DNA of 64,000 bases from assembly GCA_963814415.1 (NCBI GenBank), contig CAWFCN010000001.1:683231-747230 (forward strand), given 5' to 3'. Origin of the DNA: an uncultured Actinomycetes bacterium (GTDB lineage: Bacteria > Actinomycetota > Thermoleophilia > RBG-16-64-13). A program made the position numbers and the translations under genes. Below are positions 10,483-49,055 of this stretch, in pieces. The first letter of the stretch is position 1. Each line of letters begins with the position of its first letter. The notes under the pieces were generated by a model. It did not search any database, had not been told where the DNA came from, and was given only the letters and a program-made list of their open reading frames with translations.

Positions 10483-11184
10483 ATGACCATCGTCATCAGT
10501 GGGCGCGGCCTATCCAAGCGTTACGTCATGGGTAAGGACAACTACGTCGACGCCCTGCGTGGCGTGTCACTGGACATAGAGCAGGGCGACATGGTGGGCA
10601 TAATGGGTCCCTCCGGCTCAGGCAAGTCCACGCTCATGCACATACTTGGCTGCCTGGACTCCCCCACCGCGGGTGAGGTCTGGCTGCAGGGGCGCCGAGT
10701 GGACAACCTCGACGGCGCAGGCCTCACGCAGCTCCGCCGGCTGGACGTCGGCTTCATCTTTCAGACCTTCAACCTCGTGCCGAGTCTCTCGGCCGTGGAG
10801 AACGTCATGCTCGCCGCCCAGTACGCCGGCAAAGGGCGCGCCGCCGCCCGCGAAGCGGCCGAAGCGGCCCTGACTCATGTGGGGCTCGCCGACAGACAAC
10901 GCCATCGGCCCAACGAGCTCTCCGGTGGCCAGCAGCAGCGCGTGGCCATCGCCCGGGCGCTCGTGAACGAGCCCAAGGTCATCTTCGGCGACGAGCCCAC
11001 CGGCAACCTCGATTCGGCGAGCTCGGACGAGATCGTCGCCATGATGCACGACATCAACAGCAAGGTCGGTACGACCTTCGTCCTGGTGACGCACGACCCG
11101 GGCGTGGCCGAGGCCTGCACTCATGTGGTCCACATGCTGGACGGCTTGGTGACCAACGGCTCCCAGCCGGGAGCGGACGACTAG
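10483..11184 (+). CDS. ABC transporter ATP-binding protein (MacB/LolD-like)
   Basis: Walker A GPSGSGKST, signature LSGGQQQRVAIARAL, Walker B IFGDEPTGNLD. Confidence 0.9.
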   Translation: MTIVISGRGLSKRYVMGKDNYVDALRGVSLDIEQGDMVGIMGPSGSGKSTLMHILGCLDSPTAGEVWLQGRRVDNLDGAGLTQLRRLDVGFIFQTFNLVPSLSAVENVMLAAQYAGKGRAAAREAAEAALTHVGLADRQRHRPNELSGGQQQRVAIARALVNEPKVIFGDEPTGNLDSASSDEIVAMMHDINSKVGTTFVLVTHDPGVAEACTHVVHMLDGLVTNGSQPGADD

Positions 11185-11192
11185 CAGAAACA

Positions 11193-11226
11193 CGCGGGGC
11201 GGGCGGCTCACGCCGCCCGCCCCGCG
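11193..11226. terminator. bidirectional GC-rich hairpin between convergent genes
   Basis: cgcggggcgggcgg-ctcac-gccgcccgccccgcg perfect stem-loop between the ABC ATPase stop and the 11253 gene stop. Confidence 0.5.
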
Positions 11227-11252
11227 GGAACTACCGCTGCCCTGTAAGGGCT

Positions 11253-11813
11253 CTACATCATGCTGGAGATATCCAGATACCACTTGCCGTCCCTGAGGAC
11301 CAACTGGTATTCCTGAGCTTCCTCGCTGTCCTTCACGTCCTCGGTGGTGGTCTCGCCGTTCTCCACCGTCACCATCTGACCCTCGACCACGGTGACCGTG
11401 GCCGTTTGGCCGTCAGCGGCCACTTCGGATTCCAACTTGACGTTCTTGAACTCCATCGACTCGTAGGTCATCTCTTCTTGCAGCATGGCCTTGAAGTCAT
11501 CGATGGTGAGACCGGCCGCGGTGACCATCTCCAGCCCCTGCGGGTCCATGATCGCTATGAACCCGTCGACATCCTTGGCCTCCATGGCGTCGAACATCTC
11601 TTGTATGGTCTGCTCGGGCCCGGATCCGCCGCCGCCGAAGATGTCGTCATGAAAGACTACGAAAACCAGAATGCAGGCCACGGCGATAACCACTACCGCG
11701 GCCACCGCGATGCCGATCCAGAGCCACTTGTTCTTCTTGCCGCCAGCCGGAGCTGCCGTCGCGCCGATAGGCGCCGGGGGCGCTGCGGGAGCTTGTGCTC
11801 CTTCGTCCGCCAT
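11253..11813 (-). CDS. membrane-anchored hypothetical protein (paralog of 8650..9156) with Pro/Ala-rich N-terminus
   Basis: ATG at 11813 (MADEGAQAP...). A TM helix follows, then the same conserved extracytoplasmic block as the 8650 gene. Confidence 0.7.
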   Translation of the reverse strand: MADEGAQAPAAPPAPIGATAAPAGGKKNKWLWIGIAVAAVVVIAVACILVFVVFHDDIFGGGGSGPEQTIQEMFDAMEAKDVDGFIAIMDPQGLEMVTAAGLTIDDFKAMLQEEMTYESMEFKNVKLESEVAADGQTATVTVVEGQMVTVENGETTTEDVKDSEEAQEYQLVLRDGKWYLDISSMM

Positions 11814-13122: not shown

Positions 13123-14361
13123 ATGAGAGGTGCGGATTCCACAGTCCCCCTGGGCGAATACGCCGAGCGGCGCGCCAAAGTGCTCGGCGCGCTGGAGGGT
13201 GCCGCGGCCGTGGTACTGGCCGGCGATCGGCCGGCGTCGGACCTCCCCTACGGTCGGCGGCCTGTGGACGCCTTCTTCTGGTACCTCACGGGCATCGATA
13301 CCGAGCCGGGCGCGGCGGTGCTGTTCGACCCCTCGGCAGAAGACCCCGAGCGCCGCATCGCCCTCTTCCTCCGGTCCCGCGACCCCGAGACCGAGCTCTG
13401 GGACGGAGCGCGCCCCTCGCTCGACTCCTCCTACAAGACGAGAACCGGTTTCTCGAGCCTGGCACGCACCGGCCAACTGGCGGCCAGACTGACGGAGGCG
13501 GCCCGGCGCACCCGCCGGCTCGCCTGCCTGCACCCGTTCGCTTCCTACGACCAGGATCTTTCGCCCGACCTAGCTCTCTTTCACAAGGTCTGCGAGAGGG
13601 TACCCACCGCGGCCATAGAGGACCGCACCCAGATACTCATCTCTATGCGCGCCGTGAAGTCCGCGGCCGAAGTCGCCCTCATCGAAAGGGCCGTCGCGGT
13701 GACTGAGAAGGGCTATGAAGCCGCCTTCAGCTCCGTACGCCCCGGCGCCGACGAGGGCGCCGTCGCGCTGGCCATGACCGCGGCCTTCCGCGCCTCGGGC
13801 GGCGCACCGGCCTTCGAGCCCATCGTCGGCTCGGGCGGCAATGGCACCGTGCTTCACTACAGCGCCAACGACAGCACCATCAGAGAAGGCGACCTGGTGG
13901 TCATAGACTATGCCGCGGCCGTGGGCGGTTATGCCTCCGATGTCACCCGCACGTTGCCCGCCGCCGGCAAGTTCACCCCCGAGCAGCGCGAGCTCTACGA
14001 CCTCGTGCTCGAAGCCAATCTGGCCGCGATCAAAGCGGTGCGACCCGGCGTCACCTACACCGAAGTGAACAAAGCCGCCCGGGACGTGATAGCCAAGGCC
14101 GGCTACGAGGATGCCTTCCCGCATGGCGTCGGGCACCACCTGGGCATCGACGTACACGACCCCGCGCCCGATGGCCCTCTAGCGGCGGGCATGATCCTCA
14201 CCATCGAGCCGGGCATATATCTGCCTGACAGAGGCATAGGGATCCGCATCGAAGACGACGTGCTGGTGACCAAGTCGGGCGCCCGCGTACTCACCGAGGC
14301 CATCCCCAAGACGCCGGAATCCGTCGAAGCAGCCATGGAGCAAAGGAGCCACCGTGCGTAG
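13123..14361 (+). CDS. Xaa-Pro aminopeptidase (M24B family)
   Basis: Creatinase N-domain plus M24 metal ligand motif HGVGHHLGIDVHD. Confidence 0.85.
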   Translation: MRGADSTVPLGEYAERRAKVLGALEGAAAVVLAGDRPASDLPYGRRPVDAFFWYLTGIDTEPGAAVLFDPSAEDPERRIALFLRSRDPETELWDGARPSLDSSYKTRTGFSSLARTGQLAARLTEAARRTRRLACLHPFASYDQDLSPDLALFHKVCERVPTAAIEDRTQILISMRAVKSAAEVALIERAVAVTEKGYEAAFSSVRPGADEGAVALAMTAAFRASGGAPAFEPIVGSGGNGTVLHYSANDSTIREGDLVVIDYAAAVGGYASDVTRTLPAAGKFTPEQRELYDLVLEANLAAIKAVRPGVTYTEVNKAARDVIAKAGYEDAFPHGVGHHLGIDVHDPAPDGPLAAGMILTIEPGIYLPDRGIGIRIEDDVLVTKSGARVLTEAIPKTPESVEAAMEQRSHRA

Positions 14362-39555: not shown

Positions 39556-40554
<999 letters not shown>

Positions 40555-40658
40555 CTCTACCGTCAACCTCCTCCTACGGATTCGTCCACGCAAAGTACCA
40601 CAAGCGCCCCTGGGCCGCCCGCGCGGCACGCCCCACCGCGACGCATCGGTCACGTCCG

Positions 40659-40742
40659 TTCAAAAACACCTCTGGAAAACGCCGCGCCTTTGACGTACAG
40701 AACTCTGTACGGAATTCCGTACAGAGAAAGCGCAGCGTTTTG
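40659..40742 (+). repeat. conserved palindromic intergenic element, copy C (between ilvN and ilvC)
   Basis: AAAACGCCGCGCCTTTgacGTACAGaactCTGTACGGAATTCCGTACAGagaAAGCGCAGCGTTTT. A near-perfect dyad with homologues at 44866 and 53357. Confidence 0.6.
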
Positions 40743-40774
40743 CACAGCTTCTCCGGATGGCCTATGCACAGTCG

Positions 40775-40830
40775 TCGCCCCGCCGGGTCTGCCGGGGCCG
40801 CCGTCGCCCCGCCGGGTCCGCCGTGCCCGA
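40775..40830 (+). repeat. direct repeat of 17 bp in the ilvN-ilvC intergenic region
   Basis: cgtcgccccgccgggtc occurs twice, 27 bp apart. Confidence 0.4.
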
Positions 40831-40848
40831 CGCGCGCATCGGGCGCGG

Positions 40849-41334
40849 CTAGGTCGCCCGCTTCCCGCGGCTCATCGCCAGGCGGCCGGTGCGCATGAGT
40901 TCCACCACGCCGAAGGGGCTCACCAGGTCGCTGAAGGCGCTCACCTTCTCGCGCGTGCCTGTCATCTCTATCACCAGCACGTCGGTGCCCACGTCGGCCA
41001 CCCTGGCTCCGAAGAGCTCCACCATCTGCATTATCTCGGGTCGGGTGCGCACGTCGGCCCTCACCTTGAGGAGCAGCAACTCGCGCTCCACGCTCTCCTC
41101 GGGGTCGAGCGTGGTGATCTTGAGCACGTTCACCAGCTTGTGCAGCTGCTTCGTGATCTGCTCCACCGAGCGGTCCTGCTCGCCCACGGTTATGGTCATG
41201 CGGGAGAGGCTCTCGTCCTCGGTCTCCGCGACCACCAGGCTATCGATGTTGAAGCCGCGGCGGGCGAAGAGCCCCGCCACGCGGACCAGGACGCCCGGCT
41301 TGTTCTCCACCAGAACGGACAGCGTATGTTTCAT
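40849..41334 (-). CDS. ilvN: acetolactate synthase small (regulatory) subunit
   Basis: ACT domain LSVLVENKPGVLVRVAGLFARRGFNI. ATG at 41334 with GAGGGGAG SD. Confidence 0.9.
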   Translation of the reverse strand: MKHTLSVLVENKPGVLVRVAGLFARRGFNIDSLVVAETEDESLSRMTITVGEQDRSVEQITKQLHKLVNVLKITTLDPEESVERELLLLKVRADVRTRPEIMQMVELFGARVADVGTDVLVIEMTGTREKVSAFSDLVSPFGVVELMRTGRLAMSRGKRAT

Positions 41335-41364
41335 GGCCGCCACTCCCCTCGGGCGTGCGCGCCC

Positions 41365-43058
41365 TCATGGCTCGCGCTCCATCATGTCGTGCACCGACCC
41401 GCCCGCGGGGATCATGGGGAACACGTTGGCCTCGCGGCTGCACCCGGATGTCTATGACTGCCGGGCGGTCGCTCGACAGACCCGCGCGCAGCACCTCTTC
41501 CAGCTCCTCCGGCTTCTCGGCCCGGTAGCCTTCGGCGCCGTAGGCCTCGGCCAGCTTGACGAAGTCGGGCTGGGCCTCCATGCAGGTGTGGCTGTAGTGC
41601 TTGTTCCAGAACAGCTCCTGCCACTGCCGCACCATGCCCAGGTACTGGTTGTTCAGGATGCAGACCTTGACCGGCAGATTGCACTGCACCGCTGTGGCCA
41701 GCTCTTGCAGGGTCATCTGGAACGAGCCGTCGCCGGCGATGTCGATGACCAGGTTGTCCGGGCAGGCCACCTGCGCGCCGATGGCGGCAGGAAAGCCGAA
41801 GCCCATGGTCCCCAGGCCACCGGAGGTTATGAAGCGCCGCGGCTTGGAGAGCTGGTAGTGCTGAGCGGCCCACATCTGGTTCTGGCCCACCTCCGTGCAG
41901 ACTATGGCGTCGCCCTTGGTGACCTCCCAGATCTTGCGCACCGCGGCCTCGGGCATGATGGTGCCGTCGTCGGAGTCGCGCACCACCAGGGGGTGCTTCT
42001 CTTTCCAGGTCTCCACCTGCTTCATCCACGGCAGATGCCGCTCGGGAGGCAGGTCGAGCTTCTTGAGTTCGGCCGTCAGGGCGGCGAGCACACGCTTGGA
42101 GTCGCCCACTATGGGCACCTGCACCGCGACGTTCTTGCTGATCTCGGCCGGGTCCACGTCTATGTGGATGAAAGACGGCCTCGGGAGCGAAGTCCTGCAG
42201 CCGCCCGGTGACCCGGTCGTCGAACCTGGCGCCCACCGCTATGAGCAGGTCGGCCTTGCTGACCGCGTAGTTGGCGTATTGCGTGCCGTGCATGCCCAGC
42301 ATGCCCATGGACAGATGATGGTCTTCGGGGAAGCAGCCCTTACCGGTGAGCGTGGTGGTCACTGGGATATTGCTGTACATGGCCATCTCGCGGAGCTCCT
42401 CGGAGGCGTTCGCGATGATGACCCCGCCTCCGGCATATATGACGGGGCGCTCGGCGGCGGCGATCACGCGCGCCGCCTCGATGATCTGTTTGGGGTGCCC
42501 CTTCAGGTTGGGCTTGTAGCCGGGCAGGCGCATCTCGGGCACCGCGGCGGCGTCGTAGTCCATATCCGCTTTGGTGATGTCCACCGGGATGTCTATGAGC
42601 ACCGGGCCGGGACGGCCCGTGCTCGCTATGTAGAAGGCCTCGCGGATGATGCGGGGCAGCGCCTGCTCGTCCTTGACCAAGTAGCTGTGCTTGACGATAG
42701 GCAGGGTGATACCGGTGATGTCGGCCTCTTGGAAGGAATCGAGACCGATGAGGTGCCGGCTGACCTGGCCCGTGATGGCCACCATGGGCACGCTGTCCAT
42801 ATAGGCGTTGGCTATGGGCGTCACCAGGTTGGTGGCCCCGGGTCCGGAGGTGGCCAAACACACCCCCACCTTGCCCGAAGCGCGGGCGTAGCCGTCGGCG
42901 GCATGCCCGGCGCCCTGCTCGTGGCGCACCAAGACATGGTTGATGTCGGATTGGTAGATGGCGTCGTACAGGGGGATCACCTGTCCCCCTGGGTAGCCGA
43001 ATATCGTGTCGACCCCCTCGCGCCCCAGCGCTTCGAGGATGACTTCAGAGCCTTTCAT
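41365..43058 (-). pseudogene. ilvB: acetolactate synthase large subunit, interrupted by two 1-nt indels (near 42170 and 41437)
   Basis: N-terminal TPP-enzyme domains are in one frame to FAPEAV. A frame switch at the aaa run 42170-42172 restores [15 protein letters not shown] second switch near 41437 restores the canonical C-terminus [21 protein letters not shown], ending in a TGA stop at 41365-41367, 28 nt before the ilvN ATG. Confidence 0.85.
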
Positions 43059-43077
43059 GTCTTTCCCTTCGCGGTTA

Positions 43078-44769
43078 TCAGGGGGCAGTGGGCGTGTCGC
43101 CCAATACCGCCCCAGTCTCAGCCCCGGACACGAAGGCTACGTAGCGGCGCAGCACGCCCGACAACTCACGTGTCGGTCTTTGCCACGCCGATCTCCTCCG
43201 CAACATCTCGTCGTCTGTGACTTTCAGGGTGAGACTCCGCTTGGGGATGTCGATGCTGATAAGGTCGCCGTTCTGCACGAAGGCGATGGGGCCGCCGTCG
43301 ACGGCCTCGGGGGCCACGTGGCCGATGCTGGCTCCGCGGCTGGCTCCACTGAAGCGGCCGTCGGTGATGAGGGCCACACTCTGGTCCAGACCCGCACCGG
43401 CCAGCGCCGAAGTCGGCGTGAGCATCTCGGGCATGCCGGGTCCGCCCTTGGGACCGACATAGCGGATGACCACCACCGAACCGGGCTTGATCTTGTCCTT
43501 CTCGATAGCGGCCATGATGCTGGCCTCGTCGTCGAAAACCACCGCGGGGCCTTCGTGCACGAGCATCTGAGGCAGCACGGCGGACTCCTTGACCACGGCT
43601 CCGTTAGGCGCCAGGTTGCCGAACAAGACCGCCAAGCCACCGGTGGCCAGATACGGACTCGCGAGCGGCTTGATGACGCTGTCGTCATTCACAGTAGCCG
43701 CCTGGTACTGCACGTCGATCCTGACGCCCGCCACGGTGGGCGCCGAGCCGTCGACCAGCTTGGCCTCGGCGAGACGCTTCATGACGGCCATGACGCCGCC
43801 GGCGCGCTGCAGGTCTTCCATGTGGTGATAGCCCGAGGGCGCCAGCTTGACCAGGTTGGGAGTGGCGTCGGCCACCTTGTTGAAGGTCTCGAGTTCGAGC
43901 TTGATGCCGGCCTCTTTGGCGATGGCCAAGAGATGCAGAACGGTATTGGTGGAGCAGCCCAGGGCCGCGTCCACGGCCAGGGCGTTCTTGATACTTGAGT
44001 CGGTGAGAAACCGCCTGATGTTCCAGCCCTTGCGGGCCACCTCCACCGCGGCCGCACCACTCTGCCGCGCCAAGATGAGGCGCGCCGAGTACGGCGCCGG
44101 GATAGTGGCGTCGCCGGGCAGCGACAGACCCAGAGATTCCATGACGCAGCCCATGGAGTTAGCGGTGAAGAGACCGGCGCACGACCCGCAGGTGGGGCAG
44201 ACGGAGTCTTCCAGCTCGGACAGGTCGTCCTCGGACATCTGGCCTTTGAAGTACTTGCCCAAGCCCTCGAAGATGTTGGAGAGGCTGACCTTGCTGCCCC
44301 GGTAGTCGCCGGCCAGCATGGGGCCGCCCGTGACCACCACGGTGGGCACATCCAGGCGCGCCGCGGCCATGATCATGCCGGGCAGGATCTTGTCGCAGTT
44401 GGTGACGAAGACCACGCCGTCCAGGGCGTGGGCCTTGACCATGATCTCCACGGAGTCGGCGATGACCTCGCGCGACACCAGGGAGTAGAACATGCCTTCG
44501 TGGTTCATGGCCAAACCGTCGCAGACGCCTATGACGTTGAACTCCAGCGGCAGACCACCCGCCTGGTAGACGCCGAACTTGACCTGTTCGGCGATGGTAT
44601 TGAGGTGCATGTGCCCCGGGATGAGCTCGTTGTAAGAGTTACAGATGCCTATGAGTGGCCGGCCCGCGTCACCGCGGCCAACGCCGAGCGCGCGCAGCAG
44701 AGAACGGTGCGGCGCGCGCGCCGGACCGGAGTAGACGGACTGACTGGTGCTCTTGGCGCTACTTTTCAC
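43078..44769 (-). CDS. ilvD: dihydroxy-acid dehydratase
   Basis: [10 protein letters not shown], CDKxxPG and Fe-S ligand CPTCGSC motifs. GTG start at 44769 with GGAGAG SD. Confidence 0.9.
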
Positions 44770-44865
44770 AGACGTGCTCTCCAGAGGTGGGGCCGAACGG
44801 CCTTCCAACAGGGCATTCTAGTTTACCCGACATTGGGTGGCTGGGTACATGGTGCATAGGTCTTT

Positions 44866-44958
44866 TTGAACGCATACGCAAACCACTGCGCCTTTTCCGT
44901 ACGGCCCGCTGTACGGTCCGCTGTACGTTGCTCTGTACGTCCAAGGCGCGGCGTTCTG
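44866..44958 (+). repeat. conserved intergenic element, copy A (ilvD/aminotransferase divergent region), with four CTGTACG direct repeats
   Basis: ACTGCGCCTTTTCCGTACGGcccgCTGTACGGtccgCTGTACGttgctCTGTACGtccAAGGCGCGGCGTT. The flanks are inverted repeats of each other. Confidence 0.6.
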
Positions 44959-45035
44959 CATATTTCCCGGAAAGCGCATGTGCACAACGGGCGGCGGGCG
45001 CAGCGCGGCTTCGGAGGTCATGGTAACCTCGCTCC

Positions 45036-46340
45036 ATGACCAACGAAGACCTCACAGCACTTCGCACCGCGAACCTCCCGCGTGGCGTCTCGGCCTCGGC
45101 CCCTGTCTACGTCGCCAAGGCGAAGAATGCCATCGTCACCGACGTGGAGGGCCGCGAATACATAGACTTCGCCGCCGGCATCGGCGTCATGAGCGTGGGC
45201 CACTGCCATCCCAAGGTGGTGGAGGCCATCAAGACGCAGGCCGACCAGTTCTCTCATACCTGCTTCGGCCTGACCGGCTACGAGCCCTATCTGCGGCTGG
45301 CTGAGAAGCTCAACCAGCATGCGCCGGGCGACTCGCCCAAGCGCACCTTCTTCATCAACTCCGGAGCCGAGGCCATCGAGAACGCCATAAAGATCGCGCG
45401 GTACGCCACGCAGCGTCCGGCGGTCATAGCCTTCGAGGATGGGTTCCACGGCCGCACGCTCCTGACCCTCAGCCTCACCTCACAGGTGAATCCCTACAAG
45501 ACGGGCTTCGGGCCCTACGCGCCCGAGGTCTACCGCATCCCCTACGCCTACTGCTACCGGTGCCCCTTGGCCCTCACCTATCCGGCCTGCGGATGCGAGT
45601 GCGCCGAGCTGCTGCGCAAGGCCTTTGACAAGTACGTCAGCGCCGAAGAGGTGGCCGCGCTGGTGGTGGAACCGGTGCTGGGCGAGGGCGGTTTTGTGGT
45701 CCCGCCGCCGGAGTACATGAGCAAGATCGACAAGATCTGCGAGGAGCACAACATCCTGCTCATCGCCGACGAGATCCAGACCGGCATGGGCCGTACCGGC
45801 AAGTGGTTCGCCATGGAACACTGGGGAGTCGAGCCCGACATCCTGGTTACAGCCAAGGCTCTGGGCGGAGGCTTTCCCCTCTCCGGCGTCACGGGCAGGC
45901 AGGAGATCATGGATGCCGTCCATCCGGGCGGGGTCGGCACCACCTTCGGCGGCAATGCGACGGCCTGCGCAGCGGGTCTGGCCGTGTTCGACATCATCGA
46001 GAGCGAAGGCCTTTTGAAGCGGGCCGCGGTGATCGGCGAGCAGATCCGTTCGCGGTTCAGGGCTCTGCAACGGGACTATCCCGTCATAGGTGACGTGCGT
46101 GGGCTCGGCGCCATGGCCGCGGTGGAGTTGGTCGAGGACCGCGAAACCAAGAAGCCCGCCGGCGACTTCGCGAACGCCTTCCGCGCCAACCTCTACCAGA
46201 ACGGCGTGATAAACATCGGCGCGGGCACCTTCCACAACGTGGTGCGCATCCTGGTGCCGCTCACCATCGAGGACGAGGTCCTGATGCGCGGCCTGGACAT
46301 CTTCGAGGCGACCCTGGCTCAGACCGCCGGCCGCGCCTAG
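45036..46340 (+). CDS. class III aminotransferase (4-aminobutyrate aminotransferase-like)
   Basis: PLP fold with ADEIQTGMGRTGKWFA and TAKALGGG (Schiff-base Lys) motifs. Confidence 0.85.
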   Translation: MTNEDLTALRTANLPRGVSASAPVYVAKAKNAIVTDVEGREYIDFAAGIGVMSVGHCHPKVVEAIKTQADQFSHTCFGLTGYEPYLRLAEKLNQHAPGDSPKRTFFINSGAEAIENAIKIARYATQRPAVIAFEDGFHGRTLLTLSLTSQVNPYKTGFGPYAPEVYRIPYAYCYRCPLALTYPACGCECAELLRKAFDKYVSAEEVAALVVEPVLGEGGFVVPPPEYMSKIDKICEEHNILLIADEIQTGMGRTGKWFAMEHWGVEPDILVTAKALGGGFPLSGVTGRQEIMDAVHPGGVGTTFGGNATACAAGLAVFDIIESEGLLKRAAVIGEQIRSRFRALQRDYPVIGDVRGLGAMAAVELVEDRETKKPAGDFANAFRANLYQNGVINIGAGTFHNVVRILVPLTIEDEVLMRGLDIFEATLAQTAGRA

Positions 46341-46405: not shown

Positions 46406-47770
46406 CTAGAGCCCCAGGTCTCTGGCCGGGTTGAGGGGCACGGTGCCCTCGTCGGGCCGGTAGAGCAGGTTCTTTAAGTCATCCCAGACCTGGTTCATGC
46501 GCGCCTGGTCGGCGGGGGTGATGGCGGTGTCGGTCTGCGGGGTCAAGCCCGGGAGCACCGGCAGGATGCGGTAGGTGATGTCCTCTTCGCCGGACTTCTG
46601 CACGTAGACAGGTAGGTAGCGCACGCTGGCCACCCGGGTCTTGTCCCCCTGCTTCTGGATGCGCAGGTAGACGATCACGCCACTGTCGGAGTAGCGCCAG
46701 CGCTGGCCCGACAGCAGGTTCCCCAGGGAGTAGGCCACGTAGGTGTCGACGCCTTCGGAGTACTGCAGAACCTTGTTTATGGGCTGCACCACGTGCGGAT
46801 GCGAGCCCAGGATCACGTCCACCCCCCGGGAGAGCAGTCCTTTTACGTCGGCAGCCCCCTGCGAGATCTCAATCTGCTCGCTGGTGGGGGTCCGGCGGTA
46901 CTCCATGCCGTAGTGCAGCATGGCCACCACCAGGTCGGCGCCTTGGGCCCGAGCGGCTGCTGCCTCCTCTGCGACCTTGTCCGCGTTCAGGATGTTGATG
47001 GCGTAGGCCTCGTGGCCCTTGACGGATCCACTGCTATTCAAGAACGCCGTGTAACTGAGAAAGGCCACCTTGATGCCCTGGATGTTGGCGATGAAGGGGG
47101 TGTCCTTCTCCTTCTGCGAACGGTAGGTGCCTACGTGGGCTATGTCGGCGCGGTCCAGGCGGTCCAGGGTGCGGGTTATGCCCAGCCAGCCGAAGTCCGC
47201 GGCATGGTTGCCGGCGGTGGCGACCAGATCCACTCCGCACAGATCGAGCGCGTCGGTGAGCGAATAGGGCGCGTTGAACTTCATGGGGTCGCTGCTGCCC
47301 GGACTGCCCCCGGCCATGGGGGACTCCAGATGCACGACCGCGTAGTCGGCCGCCGAGAGATACGGGGCCACAGGCGCGAACGTCTTCCTGAAGTCGTAGA
47401 CATCTCGGGGCCGGTCGTAGGCCGACTGAAGGACGCTCGGATGGATGATTATCTCGCCCCCGGCGGCGATGGTTATGTCCACCGTCGGCTCGGTGGTGGT
47501 CGTGGTCCCCGATGAAACGACAGTGGTCGTGGTGTCTGACTCTACCGGCAGTGACACCACGGGCGGGACGGTGATCACCGTCTCGGGCTTCACAGCAGTG
47601 ACGATGGTGTCTTCGTCAGAGGGCCAGAAGAACAAGGGCAGGCACATCACTAACAGGGCCAGCGCCAGACCGCTCAGCTTGAGGGCGGTGCTTGTGGGCA
47701 TCCTGCGCAGAAAACGCCAAGCACGGTCGAAGAGCTTCTTGACCACCCGCCTAGTCCTCAGTCGAGCCAA
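46406..47770 (-). CDS. CapA family protein (poly-gamma-glutamate synthesis-type metallophosphatase)
   Basis: N-terminal TM anchor, Thr-rich linker, CapA/PGA_cap domain (VATAGNHAADFG, ILGSHPHVVQP). Confidence 0.8.
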   Translation of the reverse strand: MARLRTRRVVKKLFDRAWRFLRRMPTSTALKLSGLALALLVMCLPLFFWPSDEDTIVTAVKPETVITVPPVVSLPVESDTTTTVVSSGTTTTTEPTVDITIAAGGEIIIHPSVLQSAYDRPRDVYDFRKTFAPVAPYLSAADYAVVHLESPMAGGSPGSSDPMKFNAPYSLTDALDLCGVDLVATAGNHAADFGWLGITRTLDRLDRADIAHVGTYRSQKEKDTPFIANIQGIKVAFLSYTAFLNSSGSVKGHEAYAINILNADKVAEEAAAARAQGADLVVAMLHYGMEYRRTPTSEQIEISQGAADVKGLLSRGVDVILGSHPHVVQPINKVLQYSEGVDTYVAYSLGNLLSGQRWRYSDSGVIVYLRIQKQGDKTRVASVRYLPVYVQKSGEEDITYRILPVLPGLTPQTDTAITPADQARMNQVWDDLKNLLYRPDEGTVPLNPARDLGL

Positions 47771-49055
47771 GCTCGGTCGGGTCCAGGGGCACGATATTCG
47801 TGTCCGCCTTGTAGAAGAGCTCCGTGAGGTCGCCCCACACCAAGTCCATCCTCTTCTGATCGGCCGGTGTGACCACTATACCCTCACCAGGGTCGACCCC
47901 GGGGAGTATGGGCAGGAGGCTCACTTTCCGAGGGTACGGACCAGAAAGCTGCACAAAGGCCCCCATGTAGCTGAGTCCCGTCACTTCGACCTGGGTCCCC
48001 TGCTTGCGGATATGCACGTAGACGATGGCCCCCCCATTGTTGTACCGTCCTTCCATCCCCGAGAGGAAGTTGCCCATGGAATAGACCACGTAGGCGTTCT
48101 TGGTTCCTGAGGCGGACTCTTGAGGGACGCACACCGCCGGCTGGATGGCATGCGGGTGAGAGCCGAGTATCACGTCCACTCCCTGCGCGAGAAGTCCAGG
48201 CTCGGTGTCCGAACCCAGCGTGTAGGTCGACTGCTTCTCGTTCGGCTCTCTGGTGTACTCCCTCCCCCAGTGGAGGATGGCGATCACCACCTCCGCACCC
48301 CCCTGACGAGCCAAGATAGCCTCCTCAGCCACTTGACTTGCCTCCTTCAGGAAGTTGACCGCATACTCCTTGTGGTCCTTCGGCGGGGTGAACTCGTTGA
48401 GATAGTCGGTGTAGTTGATGAACGCCACCTTGATGCCCTTGATGTCCACTATGAGAGGGCTGGTGGACTTCTTCTCTTCCATGTTCCGCGCCGTACCCAC
48501 GTGGGCGAGACCGGCTTCGTCCAGGCGGGCCAAGGTTTTCACCACGCCATCCCAGCGCTTGTCGAGGGTATGGTTGTTGGCCGTCGCTACCAGGTCCACG
48601 CCTGCCCACGCCAGCGCATCGGCTATCTCGCCCGGGGAGTTGAACCTCGGGTAGCTGGTGTAGGGATGTCCGGCGCCCGCGAGACGAGTCTCCAAGTTGA
48701 CCAGGGTGTAGTCGGCCATGCGGAGATAGGGCGCGATGGGAGCGAAGGTCGGTCGGAAGTCGTAGCCCCCCTCGGTGCCGGCGGCCTTGGCGGCCCGCAT
48801 CAGCGACCCGTGCACCATGATGTCACCCGTCGCGGCTATGGTTATCTCCACAGCAGCTTCGGCCTCAGTGGTGGGCGGCTGGGCGGCGGAGACGGCAGTG
48901 GTCGACGTTCCGGGTATGGACCCTTCTGTTTGCGAGCCTTGGTCGCCAGAAGAGCGACCGTCATCTGCCGTACAACCCGCCTGAAGCCCGGCGGCGCAGC
49001 ACAAGACGAATGTCGCCGCTACCGCCACCCCTAAGAGGACAGCCTTGCGCATCAA
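47751..49055 (-). CDS. CapA family lipoprotein (tandem paralog)
   Basis: Lipobox LQAGCT. Same CapA motifs (VATANNHTLD, ILGSHPHAIQP). Confidence 0.8.
   Translation of the reverse strand: MMRKAVLLGVAVAATFVLCCAAGLQAGCTADDGRSSGDQGSQTEGSIPGTSTTAVSAAQPPTTEAEAAVEITIAATGDIMVHGSLMRAAKAAGTEGGYDFRPTFAPIAPYLRMADYTLVNLETRLAGAGHPYTSYPRFNSPGEIADALAWAGVDLVATANNHTLDKRWDGVVKTLARLDEAGLAHVGTARNMEEKKSTSPLIVDIKGIKVAFINYTDYLNEFTPPKDHKEYAVNFLKEASQVAEEAILARQGGAEVVIAILHWGREYTREPNEKQSTYTLGSDTEPGLLAQGVDVILGSHPHAIQPAVCVPQESASGTKNAYVVYSMGNFLSGMEGRYNNGGAIVYVHIRKQGTQVEVTGLSYMGAFVQLSGPYPRKVSLLPILPGVDPGEGIVVTPADQKRMDLVWGDLTELFYKADTNIVPLDPTELGSTED

Follow-up and report, generated by a model that had tools for sequence, protein, structure and literature searches.

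Upstream of ilvD in an uncultured Actinomycetes bacterium, four short palindromic boxes stand in a row between inverted arms, and the question raised by this locus is what kind of element they form. The element lies in a stretch of 64,000 nucleotides from contig CAWFCN010000001.1, which was analysed as a whole and is referred to here as the window. A first, sequence-only reading had offered three answers: a multi-site operator with a palindromic GTAC core, an element resembling a miniature inverted-repeat transposable element (MITE), or a structured RNA leader for the ilv operon. We found that the element belongs to a family of dispersed non-coding repeats that differ in presence and absence between close relatives, that its boxes are conserved in sequence and in their 12-bp spacing, and that this geometry matches the operators of YefM-type antitoxins. 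With moderate confidence, we favor the reading that it is a lineage-restricted dispersed repeat whose functional core is a double-stranded DNA array that binds a YefM-type, or an equivalent dimeric, protein.

The sequence at 44866-44958 is as it was first described, including four CYGTACR heptamers (starting at 44897, 44909, 44921 and 44933). These recur with an exact 12-bp period, also reported by Tandem Repeats Finder, leaving 5 nt between heptamers rather than the 4-5 nt first given, and 6 nt between YGTACR hexamers. The flanks had been described as reverse complements of each other, which is perfectly true of GCGCCTT (44888-44894) and AAGGCGC (44943-44949), but the longer arms are only imperfect inverted repeats. 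Comparison of three copies in the window showed that the element upstream of ilvD, copy A, is longer than had been drawn, extending over about 44850-44986, with arms of ~40-48 nt on each side of the array and similarity reaching about 25-45 nt. The inner part of its left arm, CTGCGCCTT, is an inverted repeat of the right arm, and testing the arms for terminal inverted repeats found them, the inner part AACGCYGCGCCTT being inverted as AAGGCGCRGCGTT. The outer ends of the three window copies are fuzzy. Copy A is composed as follows:

44850..44986, plus strand: copy A, full element with left arm, four boxes and right arm (nhmmer envelope 44841-44991, E = 4e-30; bounds from the three-copy comparison)
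44850..44897, plus strand: left arm of copy A, TGGTGCATAGGTCTTTTTGAACGCATACGCAAACCACTGCGCCTTTTC, an arm common to copies B and C and to the metagenome copy L051 (GAACGCATACGCAGAATGCTGCGCATTCTC)
44898..44939, no strand: array of four YGTACR boxes, CGTACG at 44898-44903 and TGTACG at 44910-44915, 44922-44927 and 44934-44939
44940..44986, plus strand: right arm of copy A, TCCAAGGCGCGGCGTTCTGCATATTTCCCGGAAAGCGCATGTGCACA; copy B and L049 have homologous right arms

The further copies that had been noticed near 40659 and 53357 are real members of one repeat family with copy A (E = 2e-27 and 3e-20 with an nhmmer profile built from six copies), and the same profile found no fourth copy in the 64-kb window:

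40654..40770, plus strand: copy B, full, with three boxes, CGTACA at 40694-40699, TGTACG at 40706-40711 and CGTACA at 40718-40723
53364..53432, plus strand: copy C, truncated, with a left arm and boxes but no right arm; CGTACG at 53403-53408, TGTACG at 53415-53420 and a degenerate CGCACG at 53427-53432

Copy B is situated between ilvN and ilvC, within the minus-strand ilv operon, and copy C between two convergent genes. The motif GTAC-N8-GTAC occurs six times in the window, against 0.34 ± 0.55 times in shuffles, and all six occurrences fall inside the three elements; GTAC-N8-GTAC-N8-GTAC occurs three times and the arm-plus-three-box pattern five times, with none expected of either.

To describe conservation position by position, 35 units from nine copies were set in register. 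The core G, T, A and C were kept in 35, 33, 32 and 35 of the 35 units, respectively, and the flanking Y (position 2) and R (position 7) in every one, while the five spacer positions carried 0.03-0.34 bits. Between arrays, boxes were 0.79 identical and spacers 0.28; within an array, spacer identity rose to 0.43. The number of units between homologous arms also varied (3, 3, 3, 4, 4, 4, 4, 4, 5 and 6). Since spacers resemble each other more within an array and box number ranges from 3 to 6, the arrays gain and lose units through duplications and deletions that act locally. Although slippage duplicates entire 12-mers, the boxes stay constant while the spacers drift, and we take this as evidence of selection on the boxes.

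The relatives recovered for this locus are uncultured actinobacterial metagenome contigs, with syntenic contigs at several distances. The closest ilvD proteins also came from metagenomes, the few named ones from metagenome-assembled genomes of uncultured Actinobacteria, Actinomycetia or Thermoleophilia. Five lineages whose ilvD is 87-92% identical to that of the window carry a copy upstream of this gene, namely the window itself, with four boxes, and the following:

L014/L019/L020, ilvD 92% identical: four boxes upstream of ilvD
L017/L018, ilvD 92% identical: six boxes upstream of ilvD
L195, ilvD 88% identical: five boxes upstream of ilvD
L198, ilvD 87% identical: three boxes upstream of ilvD

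At this orthologous position the boxes are near-perfect in all five lineages, while the DNA between element and promoter, like the rest of the ilvD-upstream intergenic region, is unalignable among them and the arms of the L014 lineage have lost complementarity (fold z-score = -0.08). The element is absent at ilvD from L196/L197 (86%), L015 (86%) and L016 (83%), and these element-free relatives keep the operon, the promoter-like site and a LysR-family gene where the contig reaches. Copies B and C were found in the window only. Copy B is missing from every relative compared, and the ilvN-ilvC gap measures 16-110 bp without the element in L015, L017 and L019, against about 295 bp in the window. 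The same gap in the window holds a GC-rich tandem repeat between ilvN and copy B (40780-40828; period 20, ~1.9 copies, also scored with period 9), which is absent from the short gaps of the relatives. L017 carries a second copy downstream of ilvC that is private and non-orthologous.

Beyond the syntenic contigs, a metagenome scan for an arm end plus three boxes returned 54 loci, mostly chance matches in coding DNA. Three true family members were among them, all from one sample (Ga0335070) and with arms recognisably the same: L027 between two aldehyde dehydrogenase genes, L049 downstream of a Kelch-repeat gene, and L051 downstream of a hexapeptide-transferase gene. Across 185,579 species-representative genomes, a search for one arm end plus two boxes gave 13 matches, all chance or coding (7 of the 13 fall in a coding region that is orthologous among Streptomyces); none of them is a copy from the window itself, so its source species lies outside that collection. 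No match to the elements was found in plasmids and phages by BLAST, and the arm-plus-box pattern had no match in viral contigs. On these sequences, the family is a dispersed repeat of a narrow clade, with insertions gained and lost recently and not tied to branched-chain amino acid genes. A box row of a different lineage was also seen in L024 (WNFM01259829.1), where four GCGTACA boxes with a 12-bp period (13412-13470), with GCGC...GCGC around them, begin immediately behind the stop codon of an XRE-type helix-turn-helix gene adjoining an RNA-ligase-like open reading frame (ORF); its arms are not those of the element family.

What could read boxes of this kind? In E. coli, the operator of yefM-yoeB consists of two palindromes, each with a TGTACA core, whose centres are 12 bp apart, with spacers that are always 6 bp long and diverse in sequence, and this arrangement is conserved in diverse genomes (PMC1802561). 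Streptomyces yefM/yoeB has TCGTACGA and TGTACC 12 bp apart (PMC3303803), and axe-txe has the same operator arrangement (PMC7730913). In the crystal structure of S. aureus YoeB-YefM2-YefM2-YoeB on DNA, two YefM dimers occupy adjacent major grooves and read GTAC(N)8GTAC; YefM contacts the DNA through Arg10 and Gln11, two dimers together have ~47-fold higher affinity, and binding is lost when TGTACA is changed to CGTACG (PMC7544224). As far as sequence can tell, the array reproduces this published geometry in the GTAC core of its palindromic hexamers, in their Y and R flanks, in an exact 12-bp period in all copies and in free 6-bp spacers. The idea of a multi-site operator with a palindromic GTAC core has thus held up in that only YGTACR is conserved, the spacers are free and the spacing is that of YefM-YoeB, but not in its assignment to ilv, given that other copies lie at the 3' ends of unrelated genes and that relatives have the same operon, promoter and LysR gene without the element.

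The metagenome scan for this box geometry also recovered, by accident, two genuine Phd/YefM operators. In L036, three TGTACA boxes with a 12-bp period end 17 nt before yefM (Pfam PhdYeFM_antitox, E = 1.7e-17), and after this gene comes yoeB (E = 1.3e-33). In L065, a PhdYeFM_antitox gene (E = 2.5e-8) is preceded by CGTACG-N6-TGTACG-N6-TGTACG, with 4 nt between the last box and the ATG. A 124-amino-acid ORF without a Pfam match (11084-11458) runs across the stop codon of this L065 gene; it is presumably the cognate toxin, possibly of an undescribed family. A further box row, at about 925-1010 of L037, comprises six or seven TGTACG/TGCACA/CGTACG-like boxes with a period of ~11-12 bp inside a 228-amino-acid ORF without a Pfam match, and could be an iteron-like site within a gene.

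On the reading that we favor, the array would be recognised as double-stranded DNA and offer a platform of high avidity on which dimers line up in a chain. As in the YefM system, each dimer would read one GTAC box in the major groove, neighbours 12 bp apart would be held together by the toxin, and 3-6 boxes would provide a site of higher avidity than the normal two-box operator. The binder may be a YefM-type protein or another protein with an equivalent reading head; that it is specifically of the Phd/YefM type is, taken on its own, a tentative prediction to which we give somewhat less than an even chance. The platform would have spread as a cassette between its inverted arms, by transposition or recombination, and the copies would be dispersed and polymorphic because the array travels in this way, with the copy upstream of ilvD then kept for a long time. 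We infer that a protein binds the array, and there may be an effect on transcription of ilvD or of the aminotransferase gene divergent from it.

Several observations weigh against this reading. The genes flanking the copies are ilvD, the aminotransferase gene, ilvN, ilvC and others, and the array does not stand at an antitoxin promoter; the elements overlap no recognisable promoter, unlike true toxin-antitoxin (TA) operators. No Phd/YefM gene was found in the 64-kb window or in related loci by tblastn and a small Phd/YefM profile, and the same queries do recover the genes in L036 and L065. One array mixes several flank types (TGTACA-, TGTACG- and CGTACG-type), and given that S. aureus YefM discriminates between such flanks, any one YefM might recognise no more than part of an array. 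Even box numbers, which binding by pairs of dimers might favor, do not predominate. Arrays of GTAC with a 12-bp period can also arise for unrelated reasons: viral contigs (IMG/VR) contain at least 120 arrays of four or more YGTACR boxes with this period, against ~0.05 expected by a rough estimate, and 96 of the 120 listed lie inside long ORFs and are read as four-codon (tetrapeptide) repeats, CCTGTACAAGAA, for example, giving Pro-Val-Gln-Glu; no Phd/YefM gene was found near the viral arrays among the matches listed. The census of the source genome covers the 64-kb window only. As to the proposed spread of the cassette, no target-site duplication was recognised between the window and the L019 ilvN-ilvC region, which are too diverged to place the junctions, and searches of species-representative genomes, plasmids, phages and viral contigs turned up neither a transposase gene nor a longer element sharing these arms.

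A more far-reaching proposal is that a movable cassette of 3-6 YefM-type sites at metabolic operons either wires TA state to genes such as ilvD or provides chromosomal decoys that buffer TA conditional cooperativity, with the ilvD-upstream copy domesticated and under selection across the clade. We consider this unlikely.

We also doubt that the element is simply a selfish miniature transposable element without host function, whose boxes would be the transposase sites of an unseen parent and whose position at ilvD would merely be tolerated. Such an element would be expected to have inverted arms, small size, no coding capacity and several dispersed copies, and all of these were found, with three copies in the window, two in L017 and three in sample Ga0335070. 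Copies B and C and the extra L017 copy are gains or losses between close relatives, copy C is truncated, and the sites occupied (between divergent promoters, between operon genes and between convergent genes) are typical of MITEs. To this extent the initial likening to a MITE was apt, but neither a duplicated target site nor a parent transposase was recognised in the comparisons described above. Moreover, a dead copy would not be expected to keep near-perfect boxes at an orthologous position in five lineages while the L014 arms and the surroundings decay.

The location upstream of ilvD, as first reported, is correct, and it invites the idea of an operator array for a dedicated branched-chain amino acid regulator, such as the LysR-type protein encoded next to ilvC, controlling ilvD and ilvC. 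The genes and signals concerned are these:

43078..44769, minus strand: ilvD, dihydroxy-acid dehydratase, 563 amino acids, GTG start at 44769 (Pfam ILVD_EDD_N and ILVD_EDD_C; start fixed by the 100% identical 563-amino-acid protein P0001)
44820..44825, minus strand: putative ilvD -10 box TAAACT, which all relatives keep as GGGTAAACTAG (assigned by its conservation and by the consensus)
45036..46340, plus strand: divergent class-III aminotransferase gene (Pfam Aminotran_3, E = 5e-138; synteny kept in all relatives)
40849..41343, minus strand: ilvN, acetolactate synthase small subunit, which directly precedes copy B in transcription order (Pfam ALS_ss_C and ACT_AHAS_ss)
39556..40554, minus strand: ilvC, ketol-acid reductoisomerase, 332 amino acids, immediately downstream of copy B (Pfam KARI_N and KARI_C; start from the L019 alignment)
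53319..53351, plus strand: terminator-like hairpin with a 15-bp stem, of the acetyl-CoA hydrolase/GNAT gene, just before copy C (terminator scan)

The genes for ilvD, the acetolactate synthase large subunit, ilvN and ilvC all run on the minus strand, with the LysR-family gene convergent with ilvC, and the divergent intergenic region holding copy A is upstream of both ilvD and the aminotransferase gene. Copy C is neighboured by the acetyl-CoA hydrolase/GNAT gene (stop 53314) and a convergent SnoaL-like gene (stop 53501). A promoter scan found no promoter-like site in or at the three window copies, and the only clear terminator at them is that of the gene before copy C. The large-subunit gene, ilvB (41368-43058, minus strand), is broken in frame twice by single-base insertions near 42175 and 41441 relative to the L017/L019 orthologues, and tblastn splits it into three frames; ilvD, ilvN, ilvC and the aminotransferase gene around it are all intact. 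Either ilvB is a pseudogene or the assembly is wrong at this place.

In relatives (L014, L016, L017, L195, L196 and L198), a promoter-like TTGAAT-N17-TAAACT lies next to ilvD (TTGCAT in L196), and in all six lineages the putative -10 box stands between the element and ilvD. The window keeps this -10 but is missing the TTGAAT -35, and is without the 100-190 bp GC-rich spacer of the relatives (44818-44850, minus strand). Because both are lacking, copy A abuts the ilvD core promoter here, with 25 bp between its outer arm end and the putative -10, and a protein bound to it could plausibly influence ilvD in this genome. A precise operator role at ilvD is unlikely because the array is 130-250 bp from the promoter in relatives.

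A dedicated regulator would account for two of the three window copies lying in the ilv operon, for conservation of the ilvD-upstream copy in five lineages, for the synteny of the LysR gene with the operon and for the close approach of the window element to the ilvD core promoter. Nonetheless, we hold it to be quite improbable. Copy C, the second L017 copy, L027, L049 and L051 are at gene 3' ends or beside unrelated genes; L015, L016, L196 and L197 retain operon, promoter and LysR gene without any element; and, depending on the lineage, the array stands anywhere from about 70 to about 250 bp away from the ilvD -10. LysR-type sites are typically T-N11-A, and GTAC-N8-GTAC provides T-N12-A instead. 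Shared arms of ~40 nt would also be needless for an operator.

It is highly improbable that the element acts as RNA, whether as a transcript hairpin serving as a leader, as an mRNA stabiliser or processing site like those of repetitive extragenic palindromic (REP) or BOX sequences, or as a small RNA with repeated protein-binding motifs. Copy B does lie within the ilv operon transcript, many copies are in 3' untranslated positions, and several form long hairpins better than their shuffles, with z-scores of -3.9 and -4.5 for copy B, -4.2 for L027 and -3.2 for the L017 ilvD-upstream copy. Fold z-scores across copies nonetheless ranged from about -4.4 to +0.4, and copies A (-1.1 and -2.1) and C (+0.4 and -1.1), like L014, fold no better than shuffles. 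Searches of Rfam gave no match at gathering thresholds over the whole window and nothing relevant at E <= 5 over 40400-45200. Arms of the same copy paired with a mean of -20.3 kcal/mol, compared with -18.3 ± 6.2 for arms of different copies; because same-copy arms pair no better, there is no compensatory covariation, and the arms are inverted copies of one consensus rather than co-varying stems. Copy A is outside the ilvD transcript and its leader because it is on the far side of the conserved putative -10 from ilvD. These results do not support the original suggestion of a structured RNA leader for ilv. In addition, no promoter-like site was found in or at the elements, and conservation of a palindromic hexamer that recurs with a constant period speaks for recognition of double-stranded DNA. 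The element is neither an ilv leader RNA nor the operator of a dedicated branched-chain amino acid regulator.

Finally, a functionless 12-bp minisatellite grown by slippage and resembling YefM operators by coincidence is barely credible, since, although unit number varies from 3 to 6 between relatives, spacers are more alike within arrays (0.43) than between them (0.28) as local duplication predicts, and 12-bp GTAC arrays are common elsewhere as coding repeats, these arrays are non-coding, their spacers have drifted to ~0 bits across lineages in which 32-35 of 35 units retain GTAC, and the same arms flank independent copies.

Other candidates were tried and rejected. CsrA-type GGA sites were suggested by L017 units, which read ACAGGAU, but the GGA is not conserved in other arrays. 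LysR T-N11-A, PadR ATGT-N8-ACAT and Noc-like ATTTCCCGG sites misfit in spacing or have motifs not conserved between copies. A small ORF running through the array is opposed by spacers that vary without a codon pattern and by frames that differ between copies.

Elsewhere in the window, other repeats were seen. A 116-nt direct repeat at 56239-56354 and 57419-57534 has 89% identity over copies 1180 bp apart, and an ORF at 55544-56035 consists of 21-nt tandem repeats (GGCAACTGCGCGGGTGGCGGC, ~5 copies) and has a high content of Gly, Cys, Asn and Ala. The adjacent minus-strand ORFs at 46406-47770 and 47751-49055 share several stretches of 44-67 nt that are 72-76% identical at an offset of ~1360 nt; since both orthologues in relatives carry the annotation PGA_cap, this looks like a tandem gene duplication.

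With a few exceptions, type II antitoxins are usually taken to control no promoters but their own, and we found no report in the literature of YefM-type box arrays outside TA promoters or in a dispersed repeat. If a YefM-type protein binds the array, the family would be the first case of an antitoxin with dispersed "orphan operators" of variable copy number, and would show how a TA module could gain a regulon, or be titrated, via a mobile non-coding element. If the binder is something else, the repeat family would still be new, and it comes from an uncultured actinobacterial lineage about which little is known. In either case the ilvD locus offers a natural experiment, with 3, 4, 5, 6 or no boxes at the same place in related genomes.

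Among known systems, the modular plan is close to that of BOX repeats, which have the anatomy boxA-boxB(n)-boxC and are found in Firmicutes. As in BOX, partly complementary end modules flank a variable number of tandem central modules (3-6 here), a likeness by analogy only. Unlike in BOX, the central module is 12 bp rather than ~45 bp long and the host is an actinobacterium, and we know of no protein-box periodicity described for BOX. Pneumococcal BOX elements are dispersed intergenic repeats, potentially mobile without a known transposase, that can affect neighbouring genes (PMC4803016). With its inverted end modules, variable central modules and dispersed polymorphic copies, the element is built like a MITE or a pneumococcal BOX.

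The Correia elements of Neisseria are MITEs of ~100-150 bp with terminal inverted repeats, many intergenic copies and a central IHF site; they vary in presence and absence between strains, can adjoin promoters and have TA dinucleotide target duplications. Our element is like them in size, inverted ends, intergenic copies, strain polymorphism, promoter proximity and a central, here putative, site for a host DNA-binding protein. It differs in having a variable array of palindromic boxes and no recognised duplication, where Correia elements have a single IHF site and defined TA duplications. The metboxes of MetJ, contiguous 8-bp units (AGACGTCT) in tandem arrays of 2-5 that each take one dimer with cooperation between neighbours, are likewise tandem short palindromes and offer a model of cooperative dimers for a 3-6-box array, although metboxes are contiguous, serve the promoters of a defined regulon and do not lie within a dispersed repeat.

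The box itself is most like those of YefM-YoeB and Axe-Txe operators, with which it shares a palindromic hexamer with a GTAC core (TGTACA in E. coli, S. aureus and Enterococcus, CGTACG in Streptomyces), exact 12-bp centre-to-centre spacing and free 6-bp spacers. Those operators have an L and an S box, which overlap the promoter no more than ~80 bp from the yefM start; they serve autoregulation of the antitoxin gene and are bound by YefM, with greater avidity by the YefM-YoeB complex. The element, in contrast, has 3-6 boxes outside any recognisable promoter, with no Phd/YefM gene nearby, and holds them between the conserved inverted arms of a dispersed multi-copy repeat. By box and spacing it would work like a YefM-YoeB operator, while its place outside an antitoxin promoter sets it apart from that class.

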